64,000 bases of DNA from an uncultured beta proteobacterium (GTDB lineage: Bacteria; Pseudomonadota; Gammaproteobacteria; Burkholderiales; Casimicrobiaceae): the NCBI GenBank assembly GCA_963739745.1, contig CAVUCJ010000010.1:35983-99982 (forward strand), in the 5' to 3' direction. Below are positions 18,853-43,738 of this stretch, piece by piece. The notes under the pieces were generated by a model, which was not told the DNA's origin, ran no database searches, and saw nothing but the letters and a program-made list of their open reading frames with translations. The translations under genes and the position numbers were made by a program. How positions within the stretch are numbered: the first letter of the stretch is position 1; every line of letters begins with the position of its first letter.

Positions 18853-19805
18853 CGTGACCCCGGCTTCTGCGCGCTGAGGTTGCGGATATAGGCGAGGAGA
18901 TCGAGTAGATCGTCCTCGGAAATCTGCCCGGCGAACGACGGCATGATTGGCGCGTATCCGGCCGCCACTTCGCGGGCGGGCAGCAGGATCGAATCGCGGA
19001 TGTAACGGTCGTCCGCGACCACCATTTGTCCGTTGCTCAGCGGCACCGGCCGCCCGTAGAGGCCTTCGAGCGAGGGCGCATGGACCGCGGCGTTGCGCCC
19101 GTGGCAGCCGCTGCATCCGAACTGGCGGAACAGCGCCTCGCCGCGCGCGGCCATCGTCGAGCCTGAATCGTTCCGGTCGAGCCAGCGCTGGAACTCGACC
19201 GGACTCTGGACGACGATCCGGCCGGACATGCGCGAATGGTCGGTTCCGCAGTACTCGGCGCAGAACAAGTGAAAGACGCCGGTGCGCGTGGCGGTGAACC
19301 ACAGCACCGTGTAGCGACCGGGAAGGACGTCCTGCTTCAGACGAAACGCCGGGACGAAGAAGCTGTGGATGACGTCCTGCGAAGTCATTACCAGCTTGAC
19401 TGGCACGTCCACCGGGACATGCAGTTCGTTGATCTCGCGCTGGCCGCCCGCATGCTGCAGCTTCCACATCCACTGCTTGGCCACCACCGAGATCTCGAGC
19501 GCGTTGTCCGGCGGCAGCGCCTGGTCGAAATACAGCGCGGCGGCCCAAACGAACACGACGATGAACAGCACCATCGGAACCGCGATCCACGTCAGTTCGA
19601 TCCGACGGCGCCGCCGCAACCGCACCCGCTCCGGCGCGCGCTCGCGGTTGACGTCGGCGTTTTTTCGGTAGCGCAGCGAGAACACGATCAGCAGGACGAT
19701 GATCACCAGCGCGACCGTTCCGGTCAGCAGCGTCATCGCCGCGAACAGCAGGTCGACGCGCCCCGCGAGCGCGGATGCCGGTTCGGGAACGAAGGGCAGC
19801 TTCAT
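18849..19805 (-). CDS. ctaC: Cytochrome c oxidase subunit II with fused cytochrome c (caa3)
   Basis: DVIHSF and [12 protein letters not shown] (CuA), plus C-terminal CSGCH heme site. Confidence 0.93.
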
Positions 19806-20611
19806 GGCCGGGATCGCGGCGATCGCCGCCGGCGCTGCACGATGACGACGAGGCCCAGGAGCGCCACGGCCGTGCAGAGGCCCACGGCCCGCGCGGCGGT
19901 TTCGACGGTCGCCGAAAACCGGCCGGTCGCGGGATCGTAGTGCAGGCAGAGCAGCAGCAGCGATCGAATCGGCGCGGCAATGCGGCCGGCGCCGGCGTCG
20001 ACGATGCCTTGGCGCAGCGCGTCGGGAGGGAAATCGACGCCGAAGAAATAGCGGGCGACGCTGCCCTCGGGCGTCACGATGACTATCCCGGCCGGATGGG
20101 CGAATTGACGTTGCACGGGGTCGAACGCGTAGCGGAATCCGACCGTGTCCGTGAGGCGGGCGATGGCGCCTTCGCCGCCCGACAGGAAATGCCAACCGCG
20201 GACCGGCGCCGGCCGAGGAGGCGTGTCCGGCGGCGCGCGCTGCGCTTGGCGCGCCATTATGGCTTCGCGGTCGCGGGGATCGATGCTGACGGCGAGAACA
20301 TCGTAATCCTCGCCCGCTGTCAGGTCGATCGCGCGCAGGCTGGCGGTCAGCGACTCGCGGACGGCGCTGCACAGATTCGGGCACTGGTTGTACCCCAACA
20401 GCAGCACGACCGGCCGGAGCCCGAAGTACGACGACAGCGGCGCGCTCGCTCCACCCTCGTCGATGAAGCGCGTGGCAAGTGGCAGCTTGGCGTCGAGGTG
20501 CTGGTCGAAGCCTACCCGCGTGAGTTCCGTTGGCGCCTGTCCAACGGCGAGCGCCAGCAGCGGGATGAACGCGAGCGCACCGGCGCCAAGATGCATGCGG
20601 TGCGCGTTCAT
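19802..20611 (-). CDS. SCO family copper chaperone
   Basis: YNQCPNLC motif, FAHPAG and C-terminal LCLHYDP..G; 4-nt overlaps on both sides. Confidence 0.85.
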
Positions 20612-20994
20612 TGGCCGCCCGCTCGGTTTTCGACCTCGACCAGGCGCCGCATCGCCCGGTCGATCGGGATGCGGATCACGCCCGCCGTCCGGTCGAGCCA
20701 ACGGTACTCGTCCAGCAGGCGGCGCTTCTCGGTCCGAAGCGCTTGCAGGTTCTCGGCGGGCCGCGGTTCGAGCGCCGGGCCTGTGACCGCCGGAGGGCGC
20801 TGCGCCTGCGGTCGCGCCGGACCGCGGTCGAGCCAGTCGACCAGCCCGCGACCCAGCCACGCCGACGCGAGGCCGACCAGGATCAGCGCCGCCACGAGAC
20901 CCAGCGCCGCGATCGTCAGGCGCGTCGCGTCGACGGCGTCGGCCTGGTAGCCGCGCGCGCCGCGCGCCGTCGGGGTCGGATCGGGGTCAGCCAT
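20608..20994 (-). CDS. ActG-like small single-TM subunit of the ACIII cluster
   Basis: One TM helix plus YRWLDRTAGVIRIPIDRAM; lies between actF and SCO. Confidence 0.6.
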   Translation of the reverse strand: MADPDPTPTARGARGYQADAVDATRLTIAALGLVAALILVGLASAWLGRGLVDWLDRGPARPQAQRPPAVTGPALEPRPAENLQALRTEKRRLLDEYRWLDRTAGVIRIPIDRAMRRLVEVENRAGGQ

Positions 20995-22138
20995 GATTGA
21001 CGGTCTCGGCCAGGCCCACGCGTGCGGCGCTCGGGGATTCGTCCAGTCGATACAGCAGCGCGCAGCTCCACAATCCTCCGATGGCGAGGAACGCGGCGGC
21101 ATCCGTCCACTGCAGCCAGAATAGGTCGACGCGCAACGCAGGGACGACCAGCCACAGCAACTCCCCCCCGTGCGCGACGAGCACGACCACGCACAGCCAC
21201 GCCAACCGCCGCGGATCGCGCTTGAACGAGCGAAGCAGCATCGCGCCGAAGGGCAGCACGAATTGCAGCGCGAACACGCCGACGGCCAGCCAGCGCCAAG
21301 GCGGCGCTGCGCGCACGACGTACCAGCCGATTTCCGACGGCAGGTCTTCCGCCCAGATGATCAGGAACTGGGTGAACGCCAGGTAGGCCCAGGTCATCAC
21401 GAACATCAGCAGCAGGTTGCCCAGGTCCTGCGCGTTGCGAGCCTCGTTCGCGCCGCGACCGGGCAGGCCGCCTCCGAACACGGTCGCCGCGACCGCGAAC
21501 GCGAATGCCGACAATGCCTGCAGCACCATGAACAGCAGGCCGAACACGCTCGAGTACCAGTGCGCGGAAAGCGACATGATCCAATCGACCGCCGCGAGGG
21601 TTGCGGTCACCGCATAGACTAGAAGGCCGAGTGCCGACAGGACACGCAGCGCCGGTACGGGCGGCGACGCGGCGTTGGTGCTGCGGTTGCGCCAATGGCG
21701 GCGCAGCGCGTAACCGATCGCGATCCATGCCGCAAAATAGACCAGCGCACGCAGCGTGAAGCCCGGGATGTTCAGGTACCAGAGCCTGCCCGCGAGGATG
21801 GGGTCGCCGGTGGCACCGGCGGTTGCCCATGGATACAGATGTGAGAGGCCGAACACGACGGGGATGCCCAGCACGGCGAGCGCCGGCAACGTGCCGATCG
21901 CAGCTTCGAGCGGCGGGCGGATCGCAAAGCCCCAGGTTCCGCCGGTCAATTCGTGGATCATGACGTTGACCATCGCGCCCAGCGCGATGCCGAGAAAGAA
22001 AAGCCAGGCCACCAGCCACGAGGCAAGCAATCGCGGCGCGTCGAACCACCAGGCCAGCGCGCAGGCGACGACTCCGGCGACGCCCGCGAAAAGCGCGCGC
22101 TTTCGCAGCCGAGCAGCGGTTGCGGCGAGCGCGGTCAT
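20987..22138 (-). CDS. actF: Alternative complex III subunit ActF
   Basis: Multi-TM; TLAAVDWIMSL..HWYSSVFG and GNLLLMFVMTWAYLAFTQFLIIW motifs. Confidence 0.85.
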   Translation of the reverse strand: MTALAATAARLRKRALFAGVAGVVACALAWWFDAPRLLASWLVAWLFFLGIALGAMVNVMIHELTGGTWGFAIRPPLEAAIGTLPALAVLGIPVVFGLSHLYPWATAGATGDPILAGRLWYLNIPGFTLRALVYFAAWIAIGYALRRHWRNRSTNAASPPVPALRVLSALGLLVYAVTATLAAVDWIMSLSAHWYSSVFGLLFMVLQALSAFAFAVAATVFGGGLPGRGANEARNAQDLGNLLLMFVMTWAYLAFTQFLIIWAEDLPSEIGWYVVRAAPPWRWLAVGVFALQFVLPFGAMLLRSFKRDPRRLAWLCVVVLVAHGGELLWLVVPALRVDLFWLQWTDAAAFLAIGGLWSCALLYRLDESPSAARVGLAETVNHG

Positions 22139-22842
22139 CGCTGCGCCTGCAGCGTGCGCCGGACTTCGGGCGGCGCGTCGGACAGGCTCGCATGCTGGCT
22201 CAACTGCAACGCGCGGATATACGCGACGATGGCACGCCGGTCGCCGGGTGGCACGCGATCGGCATACGGGTACATCGCGCCGTAGCCGTGCGTGATGACC
22301 GCATGGTAATGCGCGTCGGGTGCGTCGCGAAGCCGGTCGACGTGAAAGGACGGCGGATGCGGAAACCCGCGGCGCGCGACCATGCCGTCTCCGTCGCCGG
22401 CTTCGCTGTGGCAGGGCGCGCAGAAGATGTCGTAACGTTCGCGTCCACGCTCGAGCAACGCCAGCGTCCAGGTGCGGCGCTCCAGGGGGTCCGGGCCGGG
22501 GCGCGAAGCAGCGCCGTCGCGGGCGACCGCCGGGACCGGCCAGGGTGTTTCCGGCGCGACGGCCACCCGCCCGAGGCGCCCGCTCGAAGTCCCGGCAAGC
22601 GTTCCCTCGCCGTGCGGAACGGTGCCGGCCACCGGCGGCCGCGACGCGCGACCGTCGGCCCACAGTGCGCTCCTGGCAAGCGGCTTGTACTTCGGCTGGT
22701 CGTACATGTTCTCGAATGTCTTCTCGCAGCCGGCCAGCAATACCGTTGCCACGAGGCATGCCGCAGCCCAGAGCCACGGACGCGCTGGGACATGGGCGCC
22801 GCGGCGCGGCCGCGGGTCCGATCGGGCGCGCGATCGCGACAT
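22135..22842 (-). CDS. actE: ACIII monoheme lipoprotein ActE
   Basis: LAGC lipobox, MYDQPK, CAPCH and GYGAMYPY motifs. Confidence 0.85.
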   Translation of the reverse strand: MSRSRARSDPRPRRGAHVPARPWLWAAACLVATVLLAGCEKTFENMYDQPKYKPLARSALWADGRASRPPVAGTVPHGEGTLAGTSSGRLGRVAVAPETPWPVPAVARDGAASRPGPDPLERRTWTLALLERGRERYDIFCAPCHSEAGDGDGMVARRGFPHPPSFHVDRLRDAPDAHYHAVITHGYGAMYPYADRVPPGDRRAIVAYIRALQLSQHASLSDAPPEVRRTLQAQR

Positions 22843-22846
22843 GGGC

Positions 22847-23386
22847 TTACCCGCCGACCCGCGACACGCGGACGGGGCCCAGCGCCCGCAGGAAGTCCTC
22901 GACGCGCTCCGGCGCAAAGGCGGATCCGGTGGCGCGTACGCACAGGAAAAAGCGGCTGCGCGACGCAAGGTCGAAGTCGGGAGCATCGAACAGCGGATGA
23001 TTCAGGCGCGGCAAGCCCGACAGAACAAGGAAGCCGACGAACGCTGCGAGCGCCGCGCCGAGCACCGTGAGCTCGAAGGTGCCGGGAATGAATGAAGGCC
23101 AGCTGTGCAGCGGCCTGCCGCCCGAATTGATCGGGTAGTCGACGACCGCGCTGTACCATTGCATGAAATACGCGCCGACGCCTCCGCCAATTCCCCCCAG
23201 GAGCGTGAGCAGCGGCACGCGGTTGGCGGTGAACCCGATGGCTTCCGGCAGCCCTTCGATCGAGAACGGGGCATACGCTTCGAGGTCGCGATACGACACC
23301 TCGCGGCAGCGGGCGATGGCGTCGAGCAGCGCGGCGGGCGAAGCAAACTCCGCCAGGATCCCGTAGAGTTTGGTCGCCTCAGGCAT
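22847..23386 (-). CDS. actD: ACIII subunit ActD (DUF3341)
   Basis: YGILAEF, YPINSGGRP..SWPSFIP.TFELTVL motifs. Confidence 0.88.
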   Translation of the reverse strand: MPEATKLYGILAEFASPAALLDAIARCREVSYRDLEAYAPFSIEGLPEAIGFTANRVPLLTLLGGIGGGVGAYFMQWYSAVVDYPINSGGRPLHSWPSFIPGTFELTVLGAALAAFVGFLVLSGLPRLNHPLFDAPDFDLASRSRFFLCVRATGSAFAPERVEDFLRALGPVRVSRVGG

Positions 23387-24743
23387 GCGCGGGCGTCCTT
23401 TCTCGCGCGAGCTTGCGCATCTCCGCGATGGAGATCGCTGGCAACACGCGCAGGAACACCAGGAACAGCAGCGCAAAAAAGCCGATCGAACCCGCGAGGA
23501 TGGCGAAGTCCCAGAAGGTCGGGTAGTACATGTGCCAGGACGACGGCAGGAAATCGCGGTTTAAGCTCGACACGATGATCATGAAGCGTTCGAGCCACAT
23601 ACCGATGTTGACCACGATCGAGATGGCGAACAGCGAGGGCGCGCTGGCGCGCACACGTGCCGACCACAGTGCCTGCGGCACGATCACGTTGCACAGCACG
23701 ACCGACCAGTAGATCGGCGCGTAGGGCCCGCGCATCCGGTTCAGCGCGTTCGCGATCTCGAACTGGTCGGCGCTGTAGAACGCCATGAAGATCTCGGTCG
23801 CGTAGCTGTAGGCGACGATCAGGCCGCAGACGAGCATCAGTTTCCCGATGTTGTCCAGATGGCGGGCGGTGATGAAGCTCTTCAGGCCGAACACGGCGCG
23901 CAGCGGTACCGCGATCGTGAGCGCCATCGCGAACCCGGAGAAGAGCGCACCGGCCACGAAGTACGGGGGGAAGATGGTCGAGTGCCAGCCGGGCGTGTTG
24001 CCGATCGAGAAATCCAATGACACGACGCTGTGCACCGAGATCACCAGCGGTGTGGCGAGGCCTGCCATCAGCAGGTAGGCCGTGTCGAAGCGATGCCATT
24101 GCCGCGCCTCGCCTCGCCAGCCGAGCGCGAGCAGTCCGTAGGCGACTTGCTTCCATCGCTTGTGCGCCGAGTCGCGCAGCGTGGCGAGGTCGGGGATCAG
24201 GCCCATGTACCAGAACAGGATCGAGACGATGATGTAGGTGCCGATGGCGAAGATGTCCCACACCAGCGGGCTTCGCCACTGAGGCCACAGATTCATGATG
24301 TTCGGATACGGGATCAGCCAGTAGAAGAACCACGGCCGCCCGAGGTGCAGGATCGGCATGAGCCCGGCCATTGCGACGGCGAAGATCGTCATTGCTTCGG
24401 CGAAACGGTTGATCGACGTGCGCCATCGTTGCCGCAGCAGCAGCAGAAATGCGGAGATGAAGGTGCCGGCATGGCCGATGCCCACCCACCACACGAAGTT
24501 GGTGAGCGCGAAAGCCCAGGCCACCGGCTGGTTGACGCCCCAGATCCCCACGCCCATGACGAAGAGGTAGCTGGTCGCGACCACGAACAGCAGCGTGAGC
24601 GCCCCGGCAACGGCCATGCCGATGAACCATCCCCAATGTGCCGGTCGGGTGAGGACGATATCCGCGATCTTGTCGGTGATCGCAGCATCGCTGTACTGCC
24701 CGACGAGTACCGGGGTGGCGGCGAGCGAGGCTTCAGTGGTCAC
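23379..24743 (-). CDS. actC: ACIII quinol-binding subunit ActC (NrfD family)
   Basis: NFVWWVGIGHAGTFISA, SINRFAEAMT and HSVVSLDF motifs. Confidence 0.93.
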   Translation of the reverse strand: MTTEASLAATPVLVGQYSDAAITDKIADIVLTRPAHWGWFIGMAVAGALTLLFVVATSYLFVMGVGIWGVNQPVAWAFALTNFVWWVGIGHAGTFISAFLLLLRQRWRTSINRFAEAMTIFAVAMAGLMPILHLGRPWFFYWLIPYPNIMNLWPQWRSPLVWDIFAIGTYIIVSILFWYMGLIPDLATLRDSAHKRWKQVAYGLLALGWRGEARQWHRFDTAYLLMAGLATPLVISVHSVVSLDFSIGNTPGWHSTIFPPYFVAGALFSGFAMALTIAVPLRAVFGLKSFITARHLDNIGKLMLVCGLIVAYSYATEIFMAFYSADQFEIANALNRMRGPYAPIYWSVVLCNVIVPQALWSARVRASAPSLFAISIVVNIGMWLERFMIIVSSLNRDFLPSSWHMYYPTFWDFAILAGSIGFFALLFLVFLRVLPAISIAEMRKLARERTPAHA

Positions 24744-24797
24744 CGGCGTCTCCGCGTGCGCGCGGCAGGCACTTCGTCGTGCATCGTCCGGTGCGCA

Positions 24798-27740
24798 TCA
24801 TGTCGGATCGACGCTGGACGCCGGGTTGCTGATCTTCGGCAGATACGTGGTGCGCGGCCGGGTGTTGAGTTCGGCCAGCAGCGTGTAGTCAAGGGGTGAT
24901 GACTTGCGCGCGTTGACCTCGCTGGCGGGATCGTTGAGGTCGCCGAACACGATCGCCCGGGTCGGACATGCGGCCTGGCACGCGGTGACGACCTCGCCGT
25001 CGGCGATGCGCCGGTCTTCCCGGTCGGCATTCACCCGCGCATTGGCAATTCGCTGGATGCAATACGAGCACTTCTCCATGACGCCGCGCATGCGCACCGT
25101 TACTTCCGGATTGCGCTGTGCGGCGAGGATCGGCAAATCCCGCGTGTAGCTCAGGAAATTGAAGCGGCGCACCTTGTACGGGCAGTTGTTCGAGCAGAAC
25201 CGCGTACCCACGCAACGGTTGTAGACCTGGACGTTCAGGCCTTCGGCGTCGTGGATCGACGCCTCGACCGGGCACACTTCCTCGCACGGCGCGTGCTCGC
25301 ACTGCATGCAGGGTACGGGCTGGAAGAACGTGCGCGGCCGCTCGCGGCTGCCGGCGAAGTAGCGATCGACACGGATCCAGTGCATCTCGCGCCCGCGCCG
25401 CACCTCGTCCTTGCCGACCACCGGTATGTTGTTCTCCGCCTGACAGGCGATCGTGCAGACGCCGCAGCCAATGCAGCTCGACAGGTCGATGCTCATTCCC
25501 CACCGGTAGCCGTCGTAGGCGAACCCCGGGTAGAGACTATCCTTGGGGTCTTCGCCATGCGCGGGTCGGCAGGCCGAAGCGAGACAACGCGCCGCATCGT
25601 CGCGCGTGAGCGTGCGCACCAGGTCGCGGCCCTCCATGCGGTGGTGCGTCTGGGCCGCGGCGAGCGGATGACGCGCGCCGGTCCTCTCGACCGTCACGCC
25701 AGCGATCCACGGTTGCGCGGAATCCCGCAGCGAATAGGCGTCGACGCCCACACCGTTGCCCACGCCGCCGGCGCGCGTGCGGCCGTGGCCCAGGTGGAGC
25801 GTGACCGAGTCGTCCGCATGTCCCGGCATGATCCACGCCGGCGCGTCGAGTTGGCGGCTCCCGCAGGTCAATCTGACGACGTCTTCACTTTCGATCGACA
25901 GGCGCGCTGCGAATGCAGGAGACACCAGCGCCACATTGTCCCAGGTCAGCGTCGTGAGCGGTTTCGGCAGTTCCTGCAGCCAAGCGTTGTTCGCGTATCG
26001 GCCGTCCCCCAGCGTCGGGTCGGCCGCAAAGACCAACTCGGTGCGGGGTGGCACGAGCGGCGCGACTTGGGCTGCGCTATCCGCGGATTCGCGCGCGCGC
26101 AGGTTCTGCGGTCTCGACGCCGCGGGCGATGCTTCGATGCGGCCACGCGACAGCGCCTCGCGCCAGAACGCTTCGAAGTCCAGCCCTCGTTGCCCTCGCC
26201 AGTGGTCGCGGACGACGTCGTATGCCGCTCGCGGCGTACCTTCCAGGATCGCCGAAAGGATCTCGCTGGCCGACTTTCCGTCGTACAACGGCGCAATGCA
26301 CGGTTGTTGAATGGAGATCGTGCCATCGTAGGCGCTGACGTCGCCCCACGCTTCGAGCGCATGCGCCGCCGGAAGCTGCCAGTCGCAGCGAAATGACGTT
26401 TCGTCGTCGTACAGACTGACGTGCGCCTTCCAGGGCACCCGCAGGAGCGCGGCGCCGAAATCGAAGTCGGCGGGTGCGTCGTAGACCGGGTTGCCTCCGA
26501 GGATCAGCAGCGTGCTCGCCTCGTCGGCGTTCATGGCGTCGACCAGTGCGCGCAACGACCCGAGCTGGCTCGACGGGTCGAAGGCGACCGGCGCACGCAG
26601 CTCGAAGGTCGCACCGACGTTGCCCAGCGCGGCGTTGATCCGGTGGACGAGCGCGTGCACTCGTGCCGGCTGGCGATCACCGGCGATCACCAACGAAGCG
26701 CCCGGCCTGCTTGCCAGATCGGAGACCGCTGCGTCGAGCCAGGCGTCGGATTCCGGTGCGGCGACGCCCGGCTGCGGTCCGAGAATGCGCCGCGCGAGCC
26801 GCTCGGTCAGCACCCCGATGTCGGACGATCGTACGACGCGCTTATGGTCTGCGAGCGCGCCGGCAAGGCTCGGTGTGCCCTCGGCGACGTAGAGCCGGTT
26901 CATGCGGGCCGGGTTGCCGGCGCGGCGTGTGTCCGCAAAATCGTGCGCATAGCGCACGCATCCGGGCAGCGTACCGACAAAGTCCGCGTCGAGCGCGACG
27001 ACGACACTGGCGGCGCCGAAATCGTAGACCGGCTCCAGCGCTTCGCCATACGCAACGCGGCTTCCGGCGTACACGTGGTCGCGGTTGAGCGGCTGGTACT
27101 GGTGCCATCGCGCACCCGGATAACGGGCGAGGATGGCGCGCAGCTGTCGATGCAGCGTCGGCGAGGTGATCGTTTCCGTCAAGATGAAGAGTCCGCGGCC
27201 ATCCGGCGCGGCGCGCAGCCTCTTCTGCAGCTCTGCCGTGAATCGATCCCATGAGGCGATCGACCGGTGGCGAAGGACGTGGCGCGAGCGGTCGGGGTCC
27301 CACAGATCGAGGACGGCGGCCTGCGCGAAGATGTCAGTCGCGCCGAGGCTCGCCGGATGTAGCGGGTTGCCCTCGATCTTGGTCGGCCGCCCCATGTTGG
27401 TTTCCACCAGCACGCCGACGCCGTATCCGTCGCGGCTCACCGTCGTCGCGAAGTACACGGGCGTACCGTAAGTCGATTCCGCGGGGCCCGACCGGTAGGG
27501 CACGATCTGCTCGAGCGGCGCGCGCGTGCATCCGCCGCTTCCCGCCAGCGCCAGTGATGCGCCCATGCACTTCAGGAAATCGCGCCGCTGCCACGACACA
27601 TCGGCGGTGGCTTGGGACGCCGATCGACCGGCCGCCCCCGGGTCGAATTCGTCCAGCCCGCGCCAGAAGTGCGCGTACGCGGCTTCGCGGTCGCCGACGC
27701 GGATGGACGAAAGATCGTTGGATGGAGGTTTCTGGCTCAT
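24798..27740 (-). CDS. actB: ACIII subunit ActB (molybdopterin-oxidoreductase-like domain plus Fe-S domain)
   Basis: Tat signal QRRDFLK; CIGCGVCTIAC, CMQC...CEEVCP, CVGTRFCSNNCP and CSYC...CQAACP motifs. Confidence 0.93.
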   Translation of the reverse strand: MSQKPPSNDLSSIRVGDREAAYAHFWRGLDEFDPGAAGRSASQATADVSWQRRDFLKCMGASLALAGSGGCTRAPLEQIVPYRSGPAESTYGTPVYFATTVSRDGYGVGVLVETNMGRPTKIEGNPLHPASLGATDIFAQAAVLDLWDPDRSRHVLRHRSIASWDRFTAELQKRLRAAPDGRGLFILTETITSPTLHRQLRAILARYPGARWHQYQPLNRDHVYAGSRVAYGEALEPVYDFGAASVVVALDADFVGTLPGCVRYAHDFADTRRAGNPARMNRLYVAEGTPSLAGALADHKRVVRSSDIGVLTERLARRILGPQPGVAAPESDAWLDAAVSDLASRPGASLVIAGDRQPARVHALVHRINAALGNVGATFELRAPVAFDPSSQLGSLRALVDAMNADEASTLLILGGNPVYDAPADFDFGAALLRVPWKAHVSLYDDETSFRCDWQLPAAHALEAWGDVSAYDGTISIQQPCIAPLYDGKSASEILSAILEGTPRAAYDVVRDHWRGQRGLDFEAFWREALSRGRIEASPAASRPQNLRARESADSAAQVAPLVPPRTELVFAADPTLGDGRYANNAWLQELPKPLTTLTWDNVALVSPAFAARLSIESEDVVRLTCGSRQLDAPAWIMPGHADDSVTLHLGHGRTRAGGVGNGVGVDAYSLRDSAQPWIAGVTVERTGARHPLAAAQTHHRMEGRDLVRTLTRDDAARCLASACRPAHGEDPKDSLYPGFAYDGYRWGMSIDLSSCIGCGVCTIACQAENNIPVVGKDEVRRGREMHWIRVDRYFAGSRERPRTFFQPVPCMQCEHAPCEEVCPVEASIHDAEGLNVQVYNRCVGTRFCSNNCPYKVRRFNFLSYTRDLPILAAQRNPEVTVRMRGVMEKCSYCIQRIANARVNADREDRRIADGEVVTACQAACPTRAIVFGDLNDPASEVNARKSSPLDYTLLAELNTRPRTTYLPKISNPASSVDPT

Positions 27741-27743
27741 GGC

Positions 27744-28397
27744 TTATCGATGGCACGTCGAGCACATCGTGAGGTGCCAACGCGAACGAATCCGGTAGCT
27801 GCGCTTGAGCGCGAGGCCGGCAGCTGCCTGGTCAACCGGCGGCCGCCAATCCATGTCGAAGACGCGGTCGACCGGGCGCAGGTACTTTTCCGGTTCGCGG
27901 TGGCACTCGAGGCACCACTGCATGTCGAGCGATTCCACCCGCCAGGTCAACGGCATCGTATCGACTCGGCCGTGGCAGGTCGAGCAGCCCACTCCCTTGC
28001 GGACATGAATGCTGTGATCGAAGTAGACGAAATCCGGAAGGTCGTGCACGCGTTGCCAGGCCAGTGCTTCGCCACCGTCGTAGGCCACGATCAATGGGCG
28101 CAGCGGCGGCGCGTCGGTGAAGAGCTGCGAATGACAGGTCATGCAGGTGGACAACGGCGGGATGCCGGCGAAGCGCGAGGTCTCGACCGAAACATGGCAA
28201 TAGCGGCAGTCGATGCCGTCATCGCCAACGTGATGCTTGTGGCTGAACGGCACGGCCTGTCCGACCGGGGAGCCGATCGCTGCATCCGAACGGGCGTTCA
28301 CGCGATAGGTGACGATGCCCATGGCGAACAGCGCAATCGCGCTGATCGCTACGAGCCGCAGTACCAGCGTGAATCGTTGCGAGAACACCTGTGCCAC
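27744..28397 (-). CDS. actA: ACIII pentaheme cytochrome ActA
   Basis: Five CxxCH motifs (CRYCH, CMTCH, CSTCH, CLECH, CSTCH); GTG start assumed. Confidence 0.9.
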   Translation of the reverse strand: MAQVFSQRFTLVLRLVAISAIALFAMGIVTYRVNARSDAAIGSPVGQAVPFSHKHHVGDDGIDCRYCHVSVETSRFAGIPPLSTCMTCHSQLFTDAPPLRPLIVAYDGGEALAWQRVHDLPDFVYFDHSIHVRKGVGCSTCHGRVDTMPLTWRVESLDMQWCLECHREPEKYLRPVDRVFDMDWRPPVDQAAAGLALKRSYRIRSRWHLTMCSTCHR

Positions 28398-28481
28398 GAT
28401 GTTGGTCTCCGCCGTCGGCGCCGAGCAAACCGGTGCGCCCGGCCTTCGCGCGAGTCTGCCGCGGGGCACGGCCCGCGGCGC

Positions 28482-29738
28482 TCATTGCAGTTTTGCGTAT
28501 TCGATCGCGCGCCGGACTTTTTCGACGTCGCCTGCGGCGACGGGCGGTGCGACGTTTCCCCAGGCGTTGCGAATGTAGGTGGCGACTTCGGCGATCTCCG
28601 TGTCGGTGAGCTTCCAGGCGAAGGCGGGCATCCCGAGCGCGGCGACTTTGGCCTGCGTCGAGGGCATGCGCGCGCCATCGAGAAGCACCTGCAGGACCGA
28701 CGTGGCGTCGTCCGCCTGAACGGGCTGACTCCCGCGCAGCCGCGGAAACACGCCCGGGATGCCGGCGCCGTCCTTGCGATGACATCCCGCGCAGTCATCG
28801 ACGTAGATGGCCTCGCCGTGCGTCATGGCCGAGGACATAGGCGGCGCAGGCGAGCCGCCCGCCGCTGCTTTTGCGCCCGGGAGCGCTTTCAGATAGACGG
28901 CGATGGCCTGCAAGTCGGTGTCGGTCAGGTAATGCGTTGATTGGGCGACGACCTCGGCCATCGGTCCCCCCGCGGCGGCGTGGGTGTTCGACCCGGTCTT
29001 CAGGTATTCGACGATGTCGGCGTTCGACCACGTGCCCAGTCCCGCCCGCTGATCGGGACCCAGGTCCGACGCAAACCATCCTTCCGCGTGGCCGCCGTCG
29101 AATGCCTCGTCGCGTTCGGGCGCGCCGGCCAGGTTGTGCGGCGTGTGACAGGCGGCGCAGTGCCCGGCGCCTTCGACCAGGTAGGCGCCGCGGTTCCAGA
29201 GGTCGCCCTTGGCCGGATCGCCGGCCAAGCTTCCGCGACGAAAGAACATGGCGTTCCACAATCCCATCACCGGACGCCAGCTGAGCGGCCAGGGAAGGCG
29301 CGGCTCCCGGTTCGGGCGGTACACGGGGTCGAGCGTTTGCAGGTAAGCGTGAATGGAGTCGACGTCCTCATGCGAAAGGTGCGTGAACCACAGATAGGGA
29401 AATGCCGGATACAGCCAGCGACCGCCCGGTGCTACGCCCTCGTGCATCGCGCGATAGAAATCCGCATCGCTCCATTGGCCGATGCCGGTGGTTGGATCGG
29501 TCGTGATGTTGGTCGAATAGAGGGTTCCGAACGGCGTGGGTATCGGCCTGCCGCCGGCGAACGGCGTGTCGCCCTCCGCGGTGTGACACGACTCGCAATC
29601 CCCGGCGCGCACCAGGTATTGGCCGCGCGCGACCTGCGCGTGCGAGTACGGCTGGGGCACCGGTCCGGCCGCGCTCGCGCTGGCGAGCATCATCGCGATG
29701 GCGGCGACGAACGCATGGCGATGGGCGGGCAGGTGCAT
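28482..29738 (-). CDS. Triheme cytochrome c subunit of a gluconate-2-dehydrogenase-like enzyme
   Basis: Signal peptide, RGQYLVRAGDCESCH, CAACH and CAGCH. Confidence 0.88.
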   Translation of the reverse strand: MHLPAHRHAFVAAIAMMLASASAAGPVPQPYSHAQVARGQYLVRAGDCESCHTAEGDTPFAGGRPIPTPFGTLYSTNITTDPTTGIGQWSDADFYRAMHEGVAPGGRWLYPAFPYLWFTHLSHEDVDSIHAYLQTLDPVYRPNREPRLPWPLSWRPVMGLWNAMFFRRGSLAGDPAKGDLWNRGAYLVEGAGHCAACHTPHNLAGAPERDEAFDGGHAEGWFASDLGPDQRAGLGTWSNADIVEYLKTGSNTHAAAGGPMAEVVAQSTHYLTDTDLQAIAVYLKALPGAKAAAGGSPAPPMSSAMTHGEAIYVDDCAGCHRKDGAGIPGVFPRLRGSQPVQADDATSVLQVLLDGARMPSTQAKVAALGMPAFAWKLTDTEIAEVATYIRNAWGNVAPPVAAGDVEKVRRAIEYAKLQ

Positions 29739-29743
29739 CCTGG

Positions 29744-31507
29744 CTACACCGTCACCAGCGGGCCTGGCTGCTTGAAATACCGGTCCCGGATCGCTTCGGC
29801 GGCCCAGAACGCCAGCGCCCCCACGGTGCCCGTGGGGTTGTACCCAGGGTTCTGCGGAAACACGCTGGCGCCCATCACGAACAGGTTTGGAACGTCCCAG
29901 CTCTGCAGGTACCGGTTCACGGCGCTGGTTCGCGGATCGGCTCCCATCACCGAGCCGCCGGTGTTGTGCGTGGTCTGGTAGGGCTCGATCGAATAGTGGC
30001 CGGTGCGCTGATTGACCTTCAGCGAGCGGGGCTTCATCGCGCGCGCGATCGCTTCTGCCTTCTGCGTGAGAAAACGCGACATCGCGTGCTCGTTTTCCTG
30101 GAAGTCGAACGTCATTCGCAGCAGCGGATTGCCGTAAACGTCGCGATAAGTGGGATCGAGGTCGAGGTAATTCTGGCGGAAGCTCATCACGCTGCCGTGG
30201 GTAGCGATGCTCGCGCTGCGCAGGTAATTTTCGGCCATCGCCTTCTTCCAGCCGGAACCCCACTTCGGTGTGCCTTCCGGCACATGGTGCTGGAGGATCG
30301 GGCGTCCGCCGGTTGTCCACAGCGCCAGATATCCGCCGCCGATGAACCCGTGCGGACCATGGTCGAAATTGTCACCGTTGAAATCGTCGACCCCTTGGCC
30401 CAGCGCGCCGGCACCCATGAACGGATTCAGGATGTCGTTGACGAAAACCTCGACCGACGAAGTGATCTGGTACGCGTAATTGCGGCCGATCACGCCGTTG
30501 CCCGAGGCCGGATCGTAGGGCCTGCCGATTCCCGACACGAGCAGCAGGTGGACGTTGTGCTGCGAATACGCGCAACTGACAACCAGCTCGGCCGGTTGGA
30601 AGAACTCGCGGCCCTGCGCGTCGACGTAGGTGACCCCCGTGGCCCGCTTGCCGGTGCTGTCGAGGTTGATCCGCGTGACGTCGCAATTCGAGCGGTACGA
30701 AAAATTGGGACTGCGCAGCAGCACCGGAAAGATCGTGGTTTGCGGGCTGGCCTTCGAATAGTTGCCGCAGCCGAACCACTCGCAGTACCCGCAATACGTG
30801 CATTGACCCATTTGCACGCCGAGCGGGTTCTTGTACGGCTGCGACGTGTTGGCGGCCGGGCAGGGGAACGGATGCATGCCGGCGTCGCGTGCGGCGCGGT
30901 CGAAGAGATTCGTGGCATGGCTGCGCTTGAGCGGAGGCAACGGATAGTCGCGGCTGCGATCGCCTTCGAACGGATTGCCTCCCTCCTGCGGCTTGCCCGC
31001 AAGCTTGCCCGCCTTGCCCGAGACGCCGCACAGATACTCGAACCGGTCGTAATGCCGTTCGAGCTCCTCGTAGCTGACGCCCCAGTCCTGGATGGTCATG
31101 TCCGAAGGGATGAAGCGCTTCCCGTAGCGTTCCTCGATATGGCTTCGCAGGCGCAAGTCCGACGGAAGAAAACGCCAGCACTGACCGTTCCAGTGCACCC
31201 CGGCACCCCCCGCGCCGGAAGCGGGGCGGAACGATCCCAGCTTGCGCATTGGCAGCGCCTTCTGGTTGCTCGTATTGCGAAACGTCAGCGTCTCGCGCTC
31301 CGGCTCCTCGAACAGTCCGTTGCGCACGGCGTAACGAAGCTCGTCCTGGATGTGCGTCGTCGCGAAGTCAGGGTTGGTGTCGCGGAATCCGCCGCGTTCG
31401 AGGGCGAGCACCTGGTGGCCCGATTGGGCAAGTTCGTGACCGACGATCGCCGCGGTCCAGCCGAATCCGATCAGCACGACCTCGACCTCGGGCAGTACGG
31501 TGGCCAT
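29744..31507 (-). CDS. GMC flavoprotein subunit (gluconate 2-dehydrogenase-like)
   Basis: IGFGWTA FAD-binding loop, CTYCGYCEWFGC and YQTTHNTGG motifs. Confidence 0.9.
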   Translation of the reverse strand: MATVLPEVEVVLIGFGWTAAIVGHELAQSGHQVLALERGGFRDTNPDFATTHIQDELRYAVRNGLFEEPERETLTFRNTSNQKALPMRKLGSFRPASGAGGAGVHWNGQCWRFLPSDLRLRSHIEERYGKRFIPSDMTIQDWGVSYEELERHYDRFEYLCGVSGKAGKLAGKPQEGGNPFEGDRSRDYPLPPLKRSHATNLFDRAARDAGMHPFPCPAANTSQPYKNPLGVQMGQCTYCGYCEWFGCGNYSKASPQTTIFPVLLRSPNFSYRSNCDVTRINLDSTGKRATGVTYVDAQGREFFQPAELVVSCAYSQHNVHLLLVSGIGRPYDPASGNGVIGRNYAYQITSSVEVFVNDILNPFMGAGALGQGVDDFNGDNFDHGPHGFIGGGYLALWTTGGRPILQHHVPEGTPKWGSGWKKAMAENYLRSASIATHGSVMSFRQNYLDLDPTYRDVYGNPLLRMTFDFQENEHAMSRFLTQKAEAIARAMKPRSLKVNQRTGHYSIEPYQTTHNTGGSVMGADPRTSAVNRYLQSWDVPNLFVMGASVFPQNPGYNPTGTVGALAFWAAEAIRDRYFKQPGPLVTV

Positions 31508-32226
31508 CAGCTTTCCGCCGCGAGCTTACGGCCGTCGCGGCCGAGGATTCCGACGGGCGGGAGCGCATAGCGCCTGTTGTATTGCTCGATCTCCGCCACA
31601 TAGTCGTAGCGCGGACCGGGAAAGCCGATCATGTTCCAGCCGATGAAATCGCGGTTGCCGCCGTACATCGGATCCGCAAGAAAGCCTTCGACCGTGTTCT
31701 GCAATAGCATCTCGAACCACGTCTTCGCCGGTGCGCTCGCCAGCTCGACTTCGCCGCTCTCGAGACCGGCAAGCACCTTGTCCTGCGCGCCGGCGGCGAG
31801 ATCGGAAAAGCGCTTGCTCTGTTGCGTCGATGCGCAATAGGCGTCGAGCTCCCGAATGGCCGTGCGATAGAGCTGTGCCGGCGTGAGCTTCAGCTGATAG
31901 CCCTGCTCGTCGGTACCCTCGGGCCATGGCCCCTGCAAGTACCAGGTCTCGGCGCGTCCGTAGGGGCCAGCAAGTTGGTGGTCGATGAACACGGTTACCG
32001 CGGCTTCCCTGGCGCCGGGGCCGAGATCGTCGGCAGGAATCAGCCGGGAGACCGCGGCGTCGATGCAACGCCACTCCGACTCAGTGAAAAACAGGCGGGC
32101 GGGAGTGGCGTCGGCGGCAGAGCCAGCGACGTCGGCGGAGTCACGTACCTTGGCGCAACCGGCGACCCACTGAACCGGGACAGCAGAAGCGGCAATGGTC
32201 AACAGTCGCCGGCGACGGGAATCCAT
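31507..32226 (-). CDS. Gluconate 2-dehydrogenase subunit 3 (gamma)-like protein
   Basis: Twin-Arg signal SRRRRLL; SRLIP.DDLGPGA and EGFLADPMYGGNRD motifs. Confidence 0.88.
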   Translation of the reverse strand: MDSRRRRLLTIAASAVPVQWVAGCAKVRDSADVAGSAADATPARLFFTESEWRCIDAAVSRLIPADDLGPGAREAAVTVFIDHQLAGPYGRAETWYLQGPWPEGTDEQGYQLKLTPAQLYRTAIRELDAYCASTQQSKRFSDLAAGAQDKVLAGLESGEVELASAPAKTWFEMLLQNTVEGFLADPMYGGNRDFIGWNMIGFPGPRYDYVAEIEQYNRRYALPPVGILGRDGRKLAAES

Positions 32227-32238
32227 GGATGCGATTGA

Positions 32239-32254
32239 GCATCTGTCGTGCCAG
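32239..32254 (-). promoter_or_regulatory. sigma54 promoter CTGGCACGACAGATGC
   Basis: Near-consensus TGGCACG-N4-(A)TGC; predicted +1 near 32227, beside the ATG at 32226. Confidence 0.7.
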
Positions 32255-32371
32255 CCGAAATCCCGCGACGGCAAATCCGGTGGCTGCCGCTCTTGCCACG
32301 GCGTCGACGCTCGATTGCCGCGGTGCCTGCATAAGCTTTCTCGAACTGAATGACAGCGCTCGCGAGACACC

Positions 32372-32446
32372 CGCCGCCCCAGCGAAAGCGGGGACCCAGC
32401 GTTGTTCGTGCAAAGCCTTCGGCCTCCCACTCTCGCGGGGATGACG
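32372..32446. repeat. Degenerate REP/dRS3-like palindromic element
   Basis: GCGAAAGCGGGGACCCAG ... CCCACTCTCGCGGGGATGACG, two imperfect nested palindromes. Confidence 0.5.
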
Positions 32447-32669
32447 CAGTCAACGCATGCCCTTCGGCCATGATGATTTGCCCGTGACATTGTCGCTGGC
32501 GGCGCATTGCGTATGCGCGAATTCGGGCGGGTTTTTCCCGAATCGTTGCATTTCATGCCATCGTCGTAGGACGACGGCCGACACGCCCTTGCAACGATGG
32601 CCTACAGCGAACGTGCCGTGCGGGCACGCCACTGCCGCTGCCGCGAAGTTCAACAATGGTGCGGCGAGG

Positions 32670-33356
32670 CTACATCGCTTCCTTGATCCCGGACCGCAGC
32701 AGCCACCAGTTGACCGGATAGGACGTGGCGAACCCGAACAGCATCGCGATTTGCATCATGAACCAGAACATCGCCGAATCGCGCGGCAATTCCATGTCCA
32801 GCCAGACGAACGTCACGAATCCCATCCACCCATACATGCCCACCTGCCAGGCGGTCAGCGACGCGGCATCGGCCTTGAGCGCTGCCTTGAGTCCCTCGCC
32901 CGGTGACAGATCGCGCATCGGCTTGATCGTGAAGTATTGAAAGGCAATTCCCAGTATGAATGCGAGCAGGAATGCCAGCGCCCAGCTCGCGAAGATGGCC
33001 TTGCCGAAGAGCGTCATCGGCACGGCGACGGCGAACGATTCGGCGGCGATGTCTCCGAGCGTGCAGCCGGCACCGCAATGCAATGTCCCGACCACGACCT
33101 TCTGCCAGAACGGCCGGTCGCTACCGGTGTGGCTGCTGGCTGGCGAGGTCCTCGCACCGGCACGCCCCAGGCGGAAATACACCCAAAGTCCCAGGGGGCC
33201 GGCGTAGAGCGCAGTCACCGGCCACACTACATTCATGATCCACATCCGCTGGCGGCGTCCCTGCGCGATGTCGAACGCTATGAACAGCGCGCACACGACC
33301 GCCAGCGTGACAAAAGCCCACGCGAGCACGGTGATCATCCTGCTTGTCTCGTCCAA
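32670..33356 (-). CDS. DUF4396 membrane protein
   Basis: MNVVWPVTALY, LHCGAGCTLGDI, AWQVGMYGWM and SYPVNWWL motifs. Confidence 0.88.
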   Translation of the reverse strand: MDETSRMITVLAWAFVTLAVVCALFIAFDIAQGRRQRMWIMNVVWPVTALYAGPLGLWVYFRLGRAGARTSPASSHTGSDRPFWQKVVVGTLHCGAGCTLGDIAAESFAVAVPMTLFGKAIFASWALAFLLAFILGIAFQYFTIKPMRDLSPGEGLKAALKADAASLTAWQVGMYGWMGFVTFVWLDMELPRDSAMFWFMMQIAMLFGFATSYPVNWWLLRSGIKEAM

Positions 33357-38729: not shown

Positions 38730-39174
38730 CGCAAACAAGTACGCCAAGTTCGTAGCGATGATCGGAGTGTCGACCGTAGCGATGCTGGGCCTCATATACC
38801 TCAACACTTACGGTCTGAATCATGTGTTCTTCAGCAAGACGCGGGCGTACTGGCTCTCGTGATGGGAGCGGCGATGTCCGTAATCGTGCTGGGGTTCAAG
38901 CTCAACAATGTTCGACGACGCTGCGGTTAATTTCGCGGTCCTGGATGTCAGCGCCGTGGTATTTGCGCTGGCGCTCTCGCTCGTCCGCAGCCAGGAGACC
39001 GTCGAGGACGTTTCCTGAATGAAGCCATGATCCGCACCGAAGCGAACAGACCAGCGAACGCGACACATCACCGATCCGCGCGTCCGCAAGCTCGCCGACG
39101 GTATCATCGAGACGCAACGCCGGGAGATCGCGGAGATGAAATCGTTGATTTCGGATCTGGAAGCCAGGCGCTAG
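38730..39174 (+). pseudogene. Degraded DUF305-family gene, copy 1
   Basis: KYAKFVAMIGVST..YLNTY.L.HVFFS.TRAY and ITDPRVRKLADGIIETQRREIAEMK; frameshifts and an internal TGA. Confidence 0.75.
38758..39024 (+). repeat. 267-bp direct repeat, copy 1
   Basis: Identical to 40600-40866 except one C/T. Confidence 0.9.
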
Positions 39175-40262
39175 TGTCCTGAGTCTGAAATGCGATTACA
39201 GAATCTGGCAACGCTGGCGAGGATCTCGTCCGCGGTCTTGGTCCAAACGAACGGTTTCGGATCTTCGTTGTAGATGTTCAAATACGAGCGGATGGCCTGT
39301 TCGAGTTCTCGGGTGCTGCGATGAGCGCCGCGCTTGATCTGGCGTGTGGTCAGCAGCGCGAAGAAGCGCTCGACCAGATTGAGCCAGGATGCTGAGGTTG
39401 GTGTGAAGTGCACGCGAAAGCGCGGGTGGCGCGCAAACCAAGCCTTGACCGAGGGCGTCTTGTGGGTGCCGTAGTTATCGAGAATCAGATGGATATCCAG
39501 CGTGGCCGGAACGTTAGCCTCGATGGTCCGCAGAAACGTCAGGAACTCTTTGCTGCGATGGCGCCGATGCAATTCGCCGATGACTTTGCCGGAAGCCAAA
39601 TCCAAGGCCGCAAACAGGCTCGTCGTGCCATGACGCTTGTAATCATGAGTGCGTCGCTCCGCCATGCCCGGTGCCAACGGCAACAGCGGCTGGGTCCGAT
39701 CCAAGGCTTGAATCTGGCTCTTCTCGTCCACGCACAGCACCATCGCCTTGGTCGGGGGATTCAGGTACAGCCCCACGATGTCGCGCACCTTGTCGATGAA
39801 CAGCGGGTCGGTCGACAGCTTGAAGGTCTCGACCCGATGCGGCTGCAGCCCGAAGGCGCGCCAGGCGCGGCTCACCGTGCTCTGCGACACCCCGAGCTTG
39901 GTGGCCAACAGCCGCGTACTCCAATGGCTCGCTTGGCGCGGCCGCTCATTGAGGGTAGTCGCGATCAGCTGCTCAATTCTCGCGTCATCAAGCTTGCGCG
40001 GCGCGCCAGGCCGCGGCTCATCGAGCAGCCCATCGAGCCGCTGCTCCAAGAACCGGCGGCGCCATTTGCCAACCGTCTGGCGCGTGACGCGGCAACGCTG
40101 TGCCACCTCGCTGTTGTTCGCCCCTTGCGCGCAGGCCAGCACGATGCGCGAACGCAACGCCAGCGCTTGCGAGGTCTTATGTCGCCGCGTCCACTCGACC
40201 AGCTGGTTGTTCTCTTGCATGGTCAATTTCAACTCAACAAGCTGGGGTCCGCTGCGCATCAT
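39171..40262 (-). CDS. IS630 transposase
   Basis: HTH; [22 protein letters not shown] and [12 protein letters not shown] motifs; ends in SDSGH*. Confidence 0.93.
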
Positions 40263-40337
40263 TCCTCTCCCGCCGGTCAACACTACCGTAAGACAGGAGA
40301 GAGAATAATTTGTTCACTTATTTACGACTCAGGACAC
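39174..40337 (-). mobile_element. IS630-family insertion sequence (1164 bp)
   Basis: Terminal IR GTGTCCTGAGTC (16/18 when extended); TA duplicated at 39172-39173 and 40338-40339; CTAG target. Confidence 0.92.
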
Positions 40338-42625: not shown

Positions 42626-42712
42626 AGCCGTTTCCACAATGCGCCGATGCGGGTTTCGTATTGTCCCCACTACGATGGGCGCCATACGAAGAATCGTTTC
42701 GAGGGTGAGGCC

Positions 42713-43738
42713 ATGAACAACGAATCGACCGGGAACATCGTATCCCTGCCTTTCCTGGCCACGATACGAGCGGCATCCGCACCGGCGCGGGGGCACTTCG
42801 GACTATTATTCGGGGGCTCTGCCGTCATGCAGGAGGTCTACCGGAAGATCGAGAAGGTCGCGCCGACATTGGCAACCGTGCTCGTGACCGGCGAATCCGG
42901 CAGCGGAAAGGAAGTCGTGGCGCGCTCGATTCATGAACTGAGCGACCGCGCCCGGATGCCTTTCGTGCCCGTCAATTGTGGCGCAATTCCCGGCACGCTG
43001 ATCGAGGCGGAGCTGTTCGGCTACGAAAAGGGCGCATTCACAGGAGCGGCAAAGATGCATCGCGGATGCTTCGAGCGCGCTTGCGGTGGCACGCTCTTCC
43101 TCGACGAAATCACCGAAATGGCGCCGGAGATGCAGGTGCGCCTGCTCCGGATTCTCGAAAGCGGGCGCTTCGCGCGCGTTGGTGGGGAGGAGGAAATAAC
43201 CACGCGGGTCCGGGTGATCGCTGCAACCAACCGTGATCCGAGGCAGGCGGTACAGGACGGGCAGCTGCGAGAGGACCTCATGTATCGCCTTGCCGTATTC
43301 CCGATCGCCCTGCCGTCGTTGCGCGAGCGCGATGGCGACGTCGAACTGCTGGCCGAATACTTTCTCCGGCAACACAACGAAAGCGAAGGTACGGCGCTTG
43401 CATTTTCGCGGCAGGCCATCGCGACCCTGCGCACGTATCACTGGCCGGGAAACGTGAGGGAACTAAAGAATGCGGTACAGCGCGCGTTCATCCTGGCGGA
43501 CAGTGAAGTCGAGATGAACTTCGCCATCGTCGACTCCACGGTGCCGACCGGCGATTGCCTGCGCGTACCGGTAGGCACGCCGCTCGCCGACATCGAGCGG
43601 CAGGCAATCCATGCGACGCTCGACCTGTGCGAGGGAAACAAGCGACGCTGCGCGGAGATGCTCGGCGTCAGCCTCAAGACGCTCTATAACCGCCTCGCTG
43701 AATACCAATCCGTCGCTGCAAGGATCGCCACGATCTAG
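42713..43738 (+). CDS. sigma54-dependent enhancer-binding protein with no N-terminal sensory domain
   Basis: GESGSGKE Walker A, GAFTGA, LFLDEI, WPGNVREL and Fis-type HTH. Confidence 0.93.
   Translation: MNNESTGNIVSLPFLATIRAASAPARGHFGLLFGGSAVMQEVYRKIEKVAPTLATVLVTGESGSGKEVVARSIHELSDRARMPFVPVNCGAIPGTLIEAELFGYEKGAFTGAAKMHRGCFERACGGTLFLDEITEMAPEMQVRLLRILESGRFARVGGEEEITTRVRVIAATNRDPRQAVQDGQLREDLMYRLAVFPIALPSLRERDGDVELLAEYFLRQHNESEGTALAFSRQAIATLRTYHWPGNVRELKNAVQRAFILADSEVEMNFAIVDSTVPTGDCLRVPVGTPLADIERQAIHATLDLCEGNKRRCAEMLGVSLKTLYNRLAEYQSVAARIATI

Follow-up and report, generated by a model that had tools for sequence, protein, structure and literature searches.

The 64,000-nucleotide stretch of DNA analysed here (the window; contig CAVUCJ010000010.1 of an uncultured beta proteobacterium of the family Casimicrobiaceae) carries on its minus strand a 16-kb cluster of respiratory genes. 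Directly in front of the first cistron of this cluster lies a sigma-54-type promoter core, CTGGCACGACAGATGCT (32238..32254, minus strand), read directly from the sequence and scoring 17.7 bits with a matrix for such sites. Its position predicts a transcription start at the A of the ATG start codon (32224..32226, minus strand), or one base before it. A transcript that is leaderless, or has a leader of 0–2 bases, is the most likely product, because the site scores well with held-out matrices, the genome encodes rpoN as well as sigma-54 activators, the start codon is well assigned, and the same geometry is found at other genes across the genus and at the corresponding operon of a related genome, G146. 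We consider it likely that the site functions as a sigma-54 promoter, and reasonably likely that it both does so and yields a leader of 0–2 bases. A sigma-54-dependent, leaderless first cistron had been proposed in an earlier note on this DNA; the motif score, the machinery, the start codon and the conserved spacing speak for it, while the RNA start and the dependence on rpoN, like the leaderless translation and the identity of the activator, are what we infer from the DNA sequence.

Promoter core and start codon

On the minus strand, the −24 element TGGCAC spans 32253-32248, with its GG at 32252-32251, and the −12 element ATGC spans 32242-32239, with its GC at 32240-32239. The 12-base spacer tcaatcgcatcc (32227..32238, minus strand) leads from the −12 GC to the ATG, and its last base, a C, stands directly before that codon. 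The complete minus-strand sequence from promoter to start is tttcggCTGGCACGACAGATGCTcaatcgcatccATGgattcc, or tttcggCTGGCACGACAGATGCTcaatcgcatccATGgattcccgtcgccggcgactg in a longer reading. The nominal +1 is 32227 if the C of the GC is counted as −12, and the A of the ATG if it is counted as −13. The earlier note had described a near-consensus sigma-54 motif with the −12 C at 32239 and +1 near 32227, and both its coordinates and its arithmetic are correct on the minus strand. It had also stated that no Shine-Dalgarno sequence precedes the ATG at 32226, and indeed the 20 bases 5′ of this codon contain none of the words GGAG, GAGG and AGGA, nor any GGA.

The −24/−12 consensus of sigma-54 promoters is reportedly that of Barrios et al. 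(1999). When the site, as CTGGCACG-ACAG-ATGCT, is aligned with YTGGCACG-N4-TTGCW, 12 of the 13 specified positions agree, and both the GG and the GC that define a sigma-54 promoter are present. The score of 17.7 bits comes from a 24-column matrix trained on intergenic sites of the same genome, with the opposite orientation of the same intergenic DNA serving as the null, and it places the site at rank 23 among productively oriented intergenic matches, with one wrongly oriented match at or above it. In three two-fold held-out runs the site received 18.0, 16.4 and 16.3 bits; held-out matches scoring at least as high numbered 8, 17 and 19 in the productive orientation vs 0, 3 and 1 in the non-productive one (0.70 Mb). 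Since there are only 0–3 such wrongly oriented matches per 0.70 Mb, our own arithmetic gives about 0.005 chance matches per genome at exactly +13 from a real start. The site is the only match of at least 14 bits in the whole window (the runner-up has 13.7 bits), and no second match of at least 10 bits occurs within 32227-32669.

Among the expected targets that the same matrix recovers are the ntrB-ntrC pair and genes for a pilin, a PEP-CTERM protein and Gcw_chp. For the last three, the distance from the site to the called start is 53–94 bases, and the Gcw_chp site carries the identical ATGCT variant of the −12 element. Genome-wide, 314 sites match TGGCAC-N5-TTGC with at most one mismatch and with GG and GC fixed; 95 of them are intergenic, about twice the 15% non-coding share. 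That the core in front of the operon is a good sigma-54 (−24/−12) site is supported by the held-out, genome-specific matrix. In turn, the genome has one rpoN gene (PF04552, 219 bits, on contig C6) and six true activators (PF00158, each at least 229 bits), so that the machinery for such a promoter is present.

The first cistron (31507..32226, minus strand) encodes a predicted gamma subunit of a three-subunit flavoprotein-cytochrome c dehydrogenase, a small protein of 239 residues (PF13618 Gluconate_2-dh3, E = 1.2e-31) that begins MDSRRRRLLTIAASAVPVQWVAGC and carries a twin-arginine translocation (TAT) signal as well as a lipobox-like VAGC. Its N terminus is MDSRRRRLL, in which residues 4-7 form the twin-arginine motif. 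The N termini of its orthologues read MKFVAGRRQLLK, MSFVPTRRRLLK or MSAMSRRQLLK, and therefore place the twin arginine a few residues from the N terminus, as in the first cistron here. A start codon further upstream and overlapping the motif, which the earlier note had named as an outcome that would speak against its proposal, was looked for. The reading frame is open upstream to 32601, but by codon score the in-frame extensions are not coding: per-codon scores are −0.52 bit over the 125 upstream codons and +0.59 over the gene, and five in-frame upstream starts would add 16–110 codons, each extension scoring negatively. The nearest of them, TTG 32274, would add 16 codons at −7.8 bits and has no Shine-Dalgarno sequence. 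Downstream, a start at 32202 would remove the twin-arginine export signal, and it too is preceded by no Shine-Dalgarno sequence. ATG 32226 is thus the best-supported start. The predicted fold of the 5′ end of the RNA has nothing notable about it (z = −0.24).

With these elements in place, sigma-54 holoenzyme would occupy the GG at 32252-32251 and the GC at 32240-32239 in a closed complex, which the ATPase of an activator would remodel and open. Transcription would then start 12–13 bases past the C of the GC; of the two candidate bases, C 32227 and A 32226, the purine A is the more likely start, and the mRNA would have AUG or CAUG as its 5′ end. The 5′-terminal AUG of the first cistron would be recognised by 70S ribosomes or by 30S-IF2, independently of a Shine-Dalgarno sequence, and the downstream cistrons would be translated by ordinary internal initiation or by coupling. 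Expression would be all-or-none and gated by the activator, because the promoter is of the enhancer-dependent −24/−12 type. If this holds, the position of the −24/−12 element alone sets both the 5′ end and the start of translation, and start codons can be called from the promoter. An activator-gated promoter would feed directly into 5′-AUG-dependent initiation at the head of a 16-kb message, and strict on/off control would apply to a large operon of energy metabolism, whose first cistron would be translated in the absence of a ribosome-binding site.

Recurrence of the spacing within the genus

The comparison covered 138 genomes of the genus, including the present one (G000). The genus tallies (the repeat and DNA searches, the activator orthologues and the spacer patterns) include one unpublished genome, G079, on which no conclusion rests; one gamma-subunit locus (L025) and one of the N16 pattern matches given below come from it. 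Among sites of at least 12 bits in the present genome, an ATG stands exactly 13 bases past the −12 C at three (the respiratory operon, a gene for a TPR protein, and chpA), and at none for offsets of 8–12 or 14.

The TPR gene (401 residues; C17:516135-517340, locus L057 extending to 517800; relatives L060-L089) is the clearest conserved case of a promoter core abutting its start codon. The set comprises 30 loci of the genus, the query together with relatives at 38–60% protein identity, and in 24 of them TGGTAT-N5-TTGC is followed by 12 bases and ATG. Two further loci have ATG after 13 bases, two have GTG after 13 bases, and the remaining two have no start at offsets 10–16. All 24 ATGs are in frame with a conserved N-terminal motif of the LELVP type. 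The spacers themselves are of 23 distinct sequences among the 24, and in 21 of them a C immediately precedes the ATG. RNA polymerase start sites favour a pyrimidine at −1 and a purine at +1, and with this preference the C before the ATG in 21 of 24 loci indicates the A of the ATG as +1.

The chpA gene, located within a pilG-H-I-J-chpA cluster (G000 C8:239268-239412; loci L058, L090 and L091-L119), has a sigma-54-like motif of its own in 27 of 30 loci. Where the motif is 13–15 bases from the start, the start codon is ATG without exception (16 of 16 loci). A GTG start, found at 11 loci, goes with a motif at a greater upstream distance (46 bases or more where measured), and three of these 11 carry GAGGAG. 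The spacer has exactly 12 bases in 11 of the 30 loci, and a C precedes the ATG in nine of those 11. The loci are related, and the pattern therefore reflects few evolutionary events rather than 27. If the proposed geometry is real, the chpA orthologues would show, as an experiment done by nature, how far leaderless initiation depends on ATG, since ATG accompanies an abutting promoter and GTG a distant one; loss of the close spacing would then go with a return to GTG, with a clear GAGGAG at three of the 11 such loci.

Two families with no Pfam match show a related arrangement. A family of 176 residues (loci L143-L145 in G008, G035 and G139) has TGGCACTATAATTGC with ATG at +13 or +14 and a possible alternative ATG at +46, and a family of 522 residues (loci L146-L147 in G062 and G130) has TGGCACGCGCCTTGC with ATG at +17. 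At the respiratory operon itself, the counterpart in G146 has GGGCATGCAATTCGC, 12 bases, and the ATG of the protein beginning MSAMSRRQLLK, with a motif score of 11.2 bits. With roughly 20 distinct loci tested, we put at about 1e-3 the probability that chance alone places a match of this score precisely at +13 from the correct ATG. The TPR gene, chpA, the 176- and 522-residue families just described, the respiratory operon and its G146 counterpart are candidate members of a class; it seems to us an evenly balanced question whether the genus has a conserved class of sigma-54 promoters with the A of the start codon as +1.

A genus-wide count was made of TGGCAY-N5-TTGC followed by ATG, with the reversed pattern as control. 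A spacer of N12 gave 42 matches (control 5), N9 gave 23 (control 8) and N16 gave 53 (control 3). These counts are not taken as support, because they have no clean N12 peak and the matches cluster in gene families.

A separate observation concerns leaderless genes of another type. Among 1632 called ATG starts of the present genome with an upstream gap of at least 60 bases, TANNNT begins at −12 in 30 cases, compared with 11–13 for adjacent positions. Such an excess suggests that this genome has a small set of leaderless genes of the sigma-70 type, and it makes leaderless translation plausible in this organism.

Alternative explanations and the choice of activator

The best-surviving alternative is that the motif is a chance match, or a site that sigma-54 binds silently, and that the operon is transcribed from an unrecognised upstream promoter or as a continuation of DUF4396 and cation-efflux transcripts, with a long leader lacking a Shine-Dalgarno sequence in front of its first cistron. 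We judge this rather unlikely, and the observations that weigh in its favour, and against a leaderless sigma-54 transcript, are gathered here. The site departs from TGGCAC-N5-TTGC at one position, where A replaces the first T of TTGC, and the bare consensus is at chance level in the window: with at most one mismatch it occurs eight times vs 5.28 expected, and 21 of 100 shuffles reach eight. The matrix was built from the host genome itself, and the gene calls on which it relies are our own and crude (4648 genes, 85% coding). By our own estimate, a few coincidences of a good site with such a spacing are expected across the roughly 250,000 windows scanned. The genus-wide pattern counts show no clean N12 peak, and in one family with the N12 spacing, that of a CsbD-like gene in G152 discussed below, the better start is an ATG preceded by a Shine-Dalgarno sequence 45 bases downstream, so that the N12 ATG is probably not the start.

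Conservation at the operon itself points the same way. No comparable motif precedes the gamma-subunit gene at some 20 further distinct loci of the genus, where most of the best scores stay under 8 bits. Strong Shine-Dalgarno sequences are also missing in front of gamma orthologues whose upstream regions differ. The motif in G146 is weak (11.2 bits), with TCGC in place of TTGC. The upstream DNA is conserved in none of the genomes or metagenomes searched: in the DNA search of the genus with the promoter region, similarity starts inside the coding region, apart from a repeat element; a scan of metagenome contigs gave 80 pattern matches and no relative, and a scan of genome contigs gave one irrelevant partial match. 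Four gamma loci that have no sigma-54 motif (L003, L004, L005 and L007, in G022, G015, G005 and G053, respectively) carry instead a conserved palindrome, TTTGTATTTTTTACAAG (TTTGTAATTCTTACAG in L007), some 35–95 bases before the ATG. This palindrome is probably a regulator site, and these loci too count against the proposal.

The intergenic region upstream of the first cistron has 443 bases, and an activator-binding site was sought in it by k-mer comparison; none was recognised, which also favours the chance or silent motif. The 275 bases upstream were compared with those of 49 other candidate promoters, giving mostly noise and no shared dyad apart from the 14-base word described below. The stretch in which an activator site would be expected (about −95 to −210) is largely taken up by a repeat element of about 115 bases flanked by CGCGAGA...TCTCGCG (32336..32450, no strand assigned), about 95–210 bases upstream of the promoter. 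This repeat has many copies, in both orientations, in other genomes of the genus, and two copies in the present genome, the second of which (C17:981587-981662) is 81% identical. A 14-base word, GGCATGCGTTGACT, located in 32440-32461 on the minus strand, is shared with another candidate promoter: its position is −221 at the respiratory promoter, and on contig C15 it precedes the −12 C of the site TGGCATGGTTGTTGC by about 116 bases. The word has three genomic copies, and its significance is marginal.

Nested inverted repeats that could form a hairpin follow the upstream DUF4396 gene (32541..32601, minus strand). They consist of ATCGTTGCA/TGCAACGAT at 32542-32550 and 32590-32598, and of GCCATCGT/ACGATGGC at 32557-32564 and 32594-32601; the fold has −29.5 kcal/mol (z = −1.77), and 13 of 200 shuffles are as stable. 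The “N5 operator variant” that the earlier note had placed at 32566-32582 falls inside this hairpin. Its minus strand, GTCGGCCGTCGTCCTAC, has no dyad symmetry of its own, and nothing marks it as an activator site, which leaves this element of the proposal unsupported. The two upstream genes are co-oriented with the operon and the hairpin after them is followed by no U tract, which leaves room for read-through; a terminator scan gave one match, inside the upstream gene, at chance level.

Against a chance or silent motif stand the 0–3 wrongly oriented held-out matches in 0.70 Mb with the resulting expectation of about 0.005 per genome at +13, the conservation of the spacing at the TPR gene and at chpA, its recurrence at the syntenic operon of G146, and the result of a simple scan of 31800-33200, which found no sigma-70-like promoter from which the operon could otherwise be read.

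According to a second alternative, the promoter works but shares the operon with another one, so that a leadered transcript also arrives from upstream and leaderless initiation is conditional. The 443-base intergenic region leaves room for this arrangement, and in Sinorhizobium meliloti 59 of 171 leaderless starts are accompanied by another start (PMC3616915). The simple scan for sigma-70-like sites and the absence of any other matrix match of at least 10 bits in 32227-32669 speak against a second promoter, and we regard it as quite improbable. It is most improbable of all that the true start lies elsewhere, at TTG 32274 with the motif inside the coding sequence or at TTG 32202 with a 25-base leader: the frame is open to 32601 and a codon-score gene caller chose 32202, but the extension to 32274 scores negatively, the shorter form would delete a twin-arginine motif kept by every orthologue, and neither start has a Shine-Dalgarno sequence.

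If transcription does depend on sigma-54, one of the six activators of the genome would have to act at this promoter, and the earlier note had suggested that it is the one encoded nearby. This enhancer-binding protein (42647-43738, plus strand; PF00158 with E = 1.3e-67, and PF02954) has a short N terminus, an AAA+ sigma-54 interaction domain and a Fis-type helix-turn-helix, with no receiver domain, and all NCBIfam equivalogs are below their cut-offs for it. Its gene is followed by those of a LuxR-type regulator, a receiver protein and a hemerythrin. It is located 10.4 kb from the promoter, on the opposite strand, with about nine genes in between, among them cation-efflux, DUF4396 and phospholipase-D-like genes, a small gene whose weak match to MscS_TM falls short of the cut-off, and an IS630-family transposase with DDE_3 and helix-turn-helix domains (39171-40283, minus strand). 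This transposase gene separates the activator gene from the respiratory genes, so the region may have undergone rearrangement. Proximity is in any case a weak hint, because by our own arithmetic the chance that a given promoter has one of six activator genes no more than 10.4 kb away is about 2.4%.

Of the 137 other genomes of the genus, 100 have an orthologue of the local activator (E ≤ 1e-90), regardless of the operon, which is far rarer, a relative of the gamma subunit being present in 12 of 60 sampled relatives. Within 1.5 kb of 20 orthologous activator loci there is no shared matrix match, and 16 of the 20 have no match of at least 12.5 bits at all. Four genomes (G031, G082, G107 and G152) have another sigma-54 promoter some 5 kb downstream from their orthologue of the activator. 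Given the distance, the opposite strand, the occurrence of the orthologues regardless of the operon and this other promoter in four relatives, the suggested pairing finds little in its favour, and a role of the local activator at the respiratory promoter appears doubtful. In G152 the other promoter reads TGGCACGCCGGTTGC (L141, G152:C2, 7492-7788) and stands before a small gene whose start is preceded by AAGGAG. This gene we take, by eye and with no family search, to resemble the CsbD stress-protein family. No promoter of that kind is present in the window.

The respiratory cluster and comparison with known systems

The genes of the cluster (16287-32226) are all on the minus strand, with intergenic gaps of at most 94 bases. 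The gamma subunit is followed by a GMC flavoprotein (29744-31507, assigned with Pfam/NCBIfam and crude gene calls) and a cytochrome c (28482-29738, Pfam/NCBIfam). A TAT-signal-bearing PF13618 gamma subunit, a GMC flavoprotein and a cytochrome c are thus adjacent, as in a three-subunit dehydrogenase, and for all these subunits the NCBIfam equivalogs are below their cut-offs. Next come the predicted subunits of an alternative complex III, with ActA (27744-28469), ActB (24798-27740), ActC (23379-24743) and an ActE-like cytochrome c (22135-22752) named from their Pfam domains and the gene order, and ActD (22847-23476; PF11821) as the only Act subunit named by a family match. Three open reading frames assigned to no family (20987-22138, 20608-20994 and 19802-20611) lead to the oxidase genes, which comprise a COX2-cytochrome c gene (18849-19805), COX1 (17221-18852), COX3 (16556-17221) and caa3 subunit IV (16287-16538). 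The name “16-kb respiratory operon” given in the earlier note is a fair description of this gene layout, with co-transcription predicted.

The TAT-exported dehydrogenase, the alternative complex III and the caa3 oxidase are thus arranged head-to-tail over 16 kb, and the arrangement is syntenic in G146 (L140, G146:C11:314500-334499), where the whole cluster is present with its order kept, including open reading frames of 587, 418 and 454 residues. The layout suggests a dedicated electron chain from a periplasmic substrate to oxygen.

Sigma-54 promoters and leaderless mRNAs are each textbook matter. Their combination, a sigma-54 promoter joined to a leaderless transcript, was not found in the main-text passages of the literature searched. 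The text consulted in PMC12754779, PMC3616915, PMC3847290, PMC5243855 (which cites the consensus of Barrios et al. 1999), PMC4842269, PMC7563307 and PMC4641369 draws no link between the two, and in that of PMC12316311 the terms searched for are absent. The expectation in the earlier note that leaderless sigma-54 transcripts would be unusual therefore stands for this literature but not within the genus, where the geometry recurs. Among published data, sigma-54 motifs of Campylobacter jejuni lie 8–13 bases upstream of mapped starts (PMC3847290), a sigma-70 −10 box that adjoins the open reading frame is reported to yield leaderless mRNA in Deinococcus-Thermus (PMC12340547), leaderless starts have been mapped in S. 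meliloti (PMC3616915) and B. japonicum (PMC4842269), and for the leaderless genes of Bradyrhizobium no specific promoters are described (PMC4842269).

Like the canonical sigma-54 promoters glnAp2, nifH, pspA and Pu, the site described here has its GG and GC 10 bases apart, an exact TGGCACG and a T after the −12 element, in a genome with rpoN and AAA+ activators; no upstream activator site was recognised for it. It differs from the pilin, PEP-CTERM and Gcw_chp sites of its own genome, in which 53–94 bases separate the promoter from the start, since the 13 bases found here leave no room for a ribosome-binding site. The predicted transcript resembles sigma-70 leaderless mRNAs in its 5′-terminal AUG, the absence of a Shine-Dalgarno sequence and a strict need for ATG, whereas its promoter would be an enhancer-dependent −24/−12 one, with the distance to the start codon fixed by sigma-54 and not by a −10 box. 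As for the genes that the promoter would serve, three-subunit dehydrogenases of the gluconate 2-dehydrogenase type and gene clusters of alternative complex III with caa3 oxidase are known systems. The cluster shares with them the TAT-signal gamma subunit of PF13618, the GMC flavoprotein, the multihaem cytochrome c, ActD, COX1–3 and caa3 subunit IV, and it differs from those known clusters in that all three modules lie head-to-tail in a single cluster.

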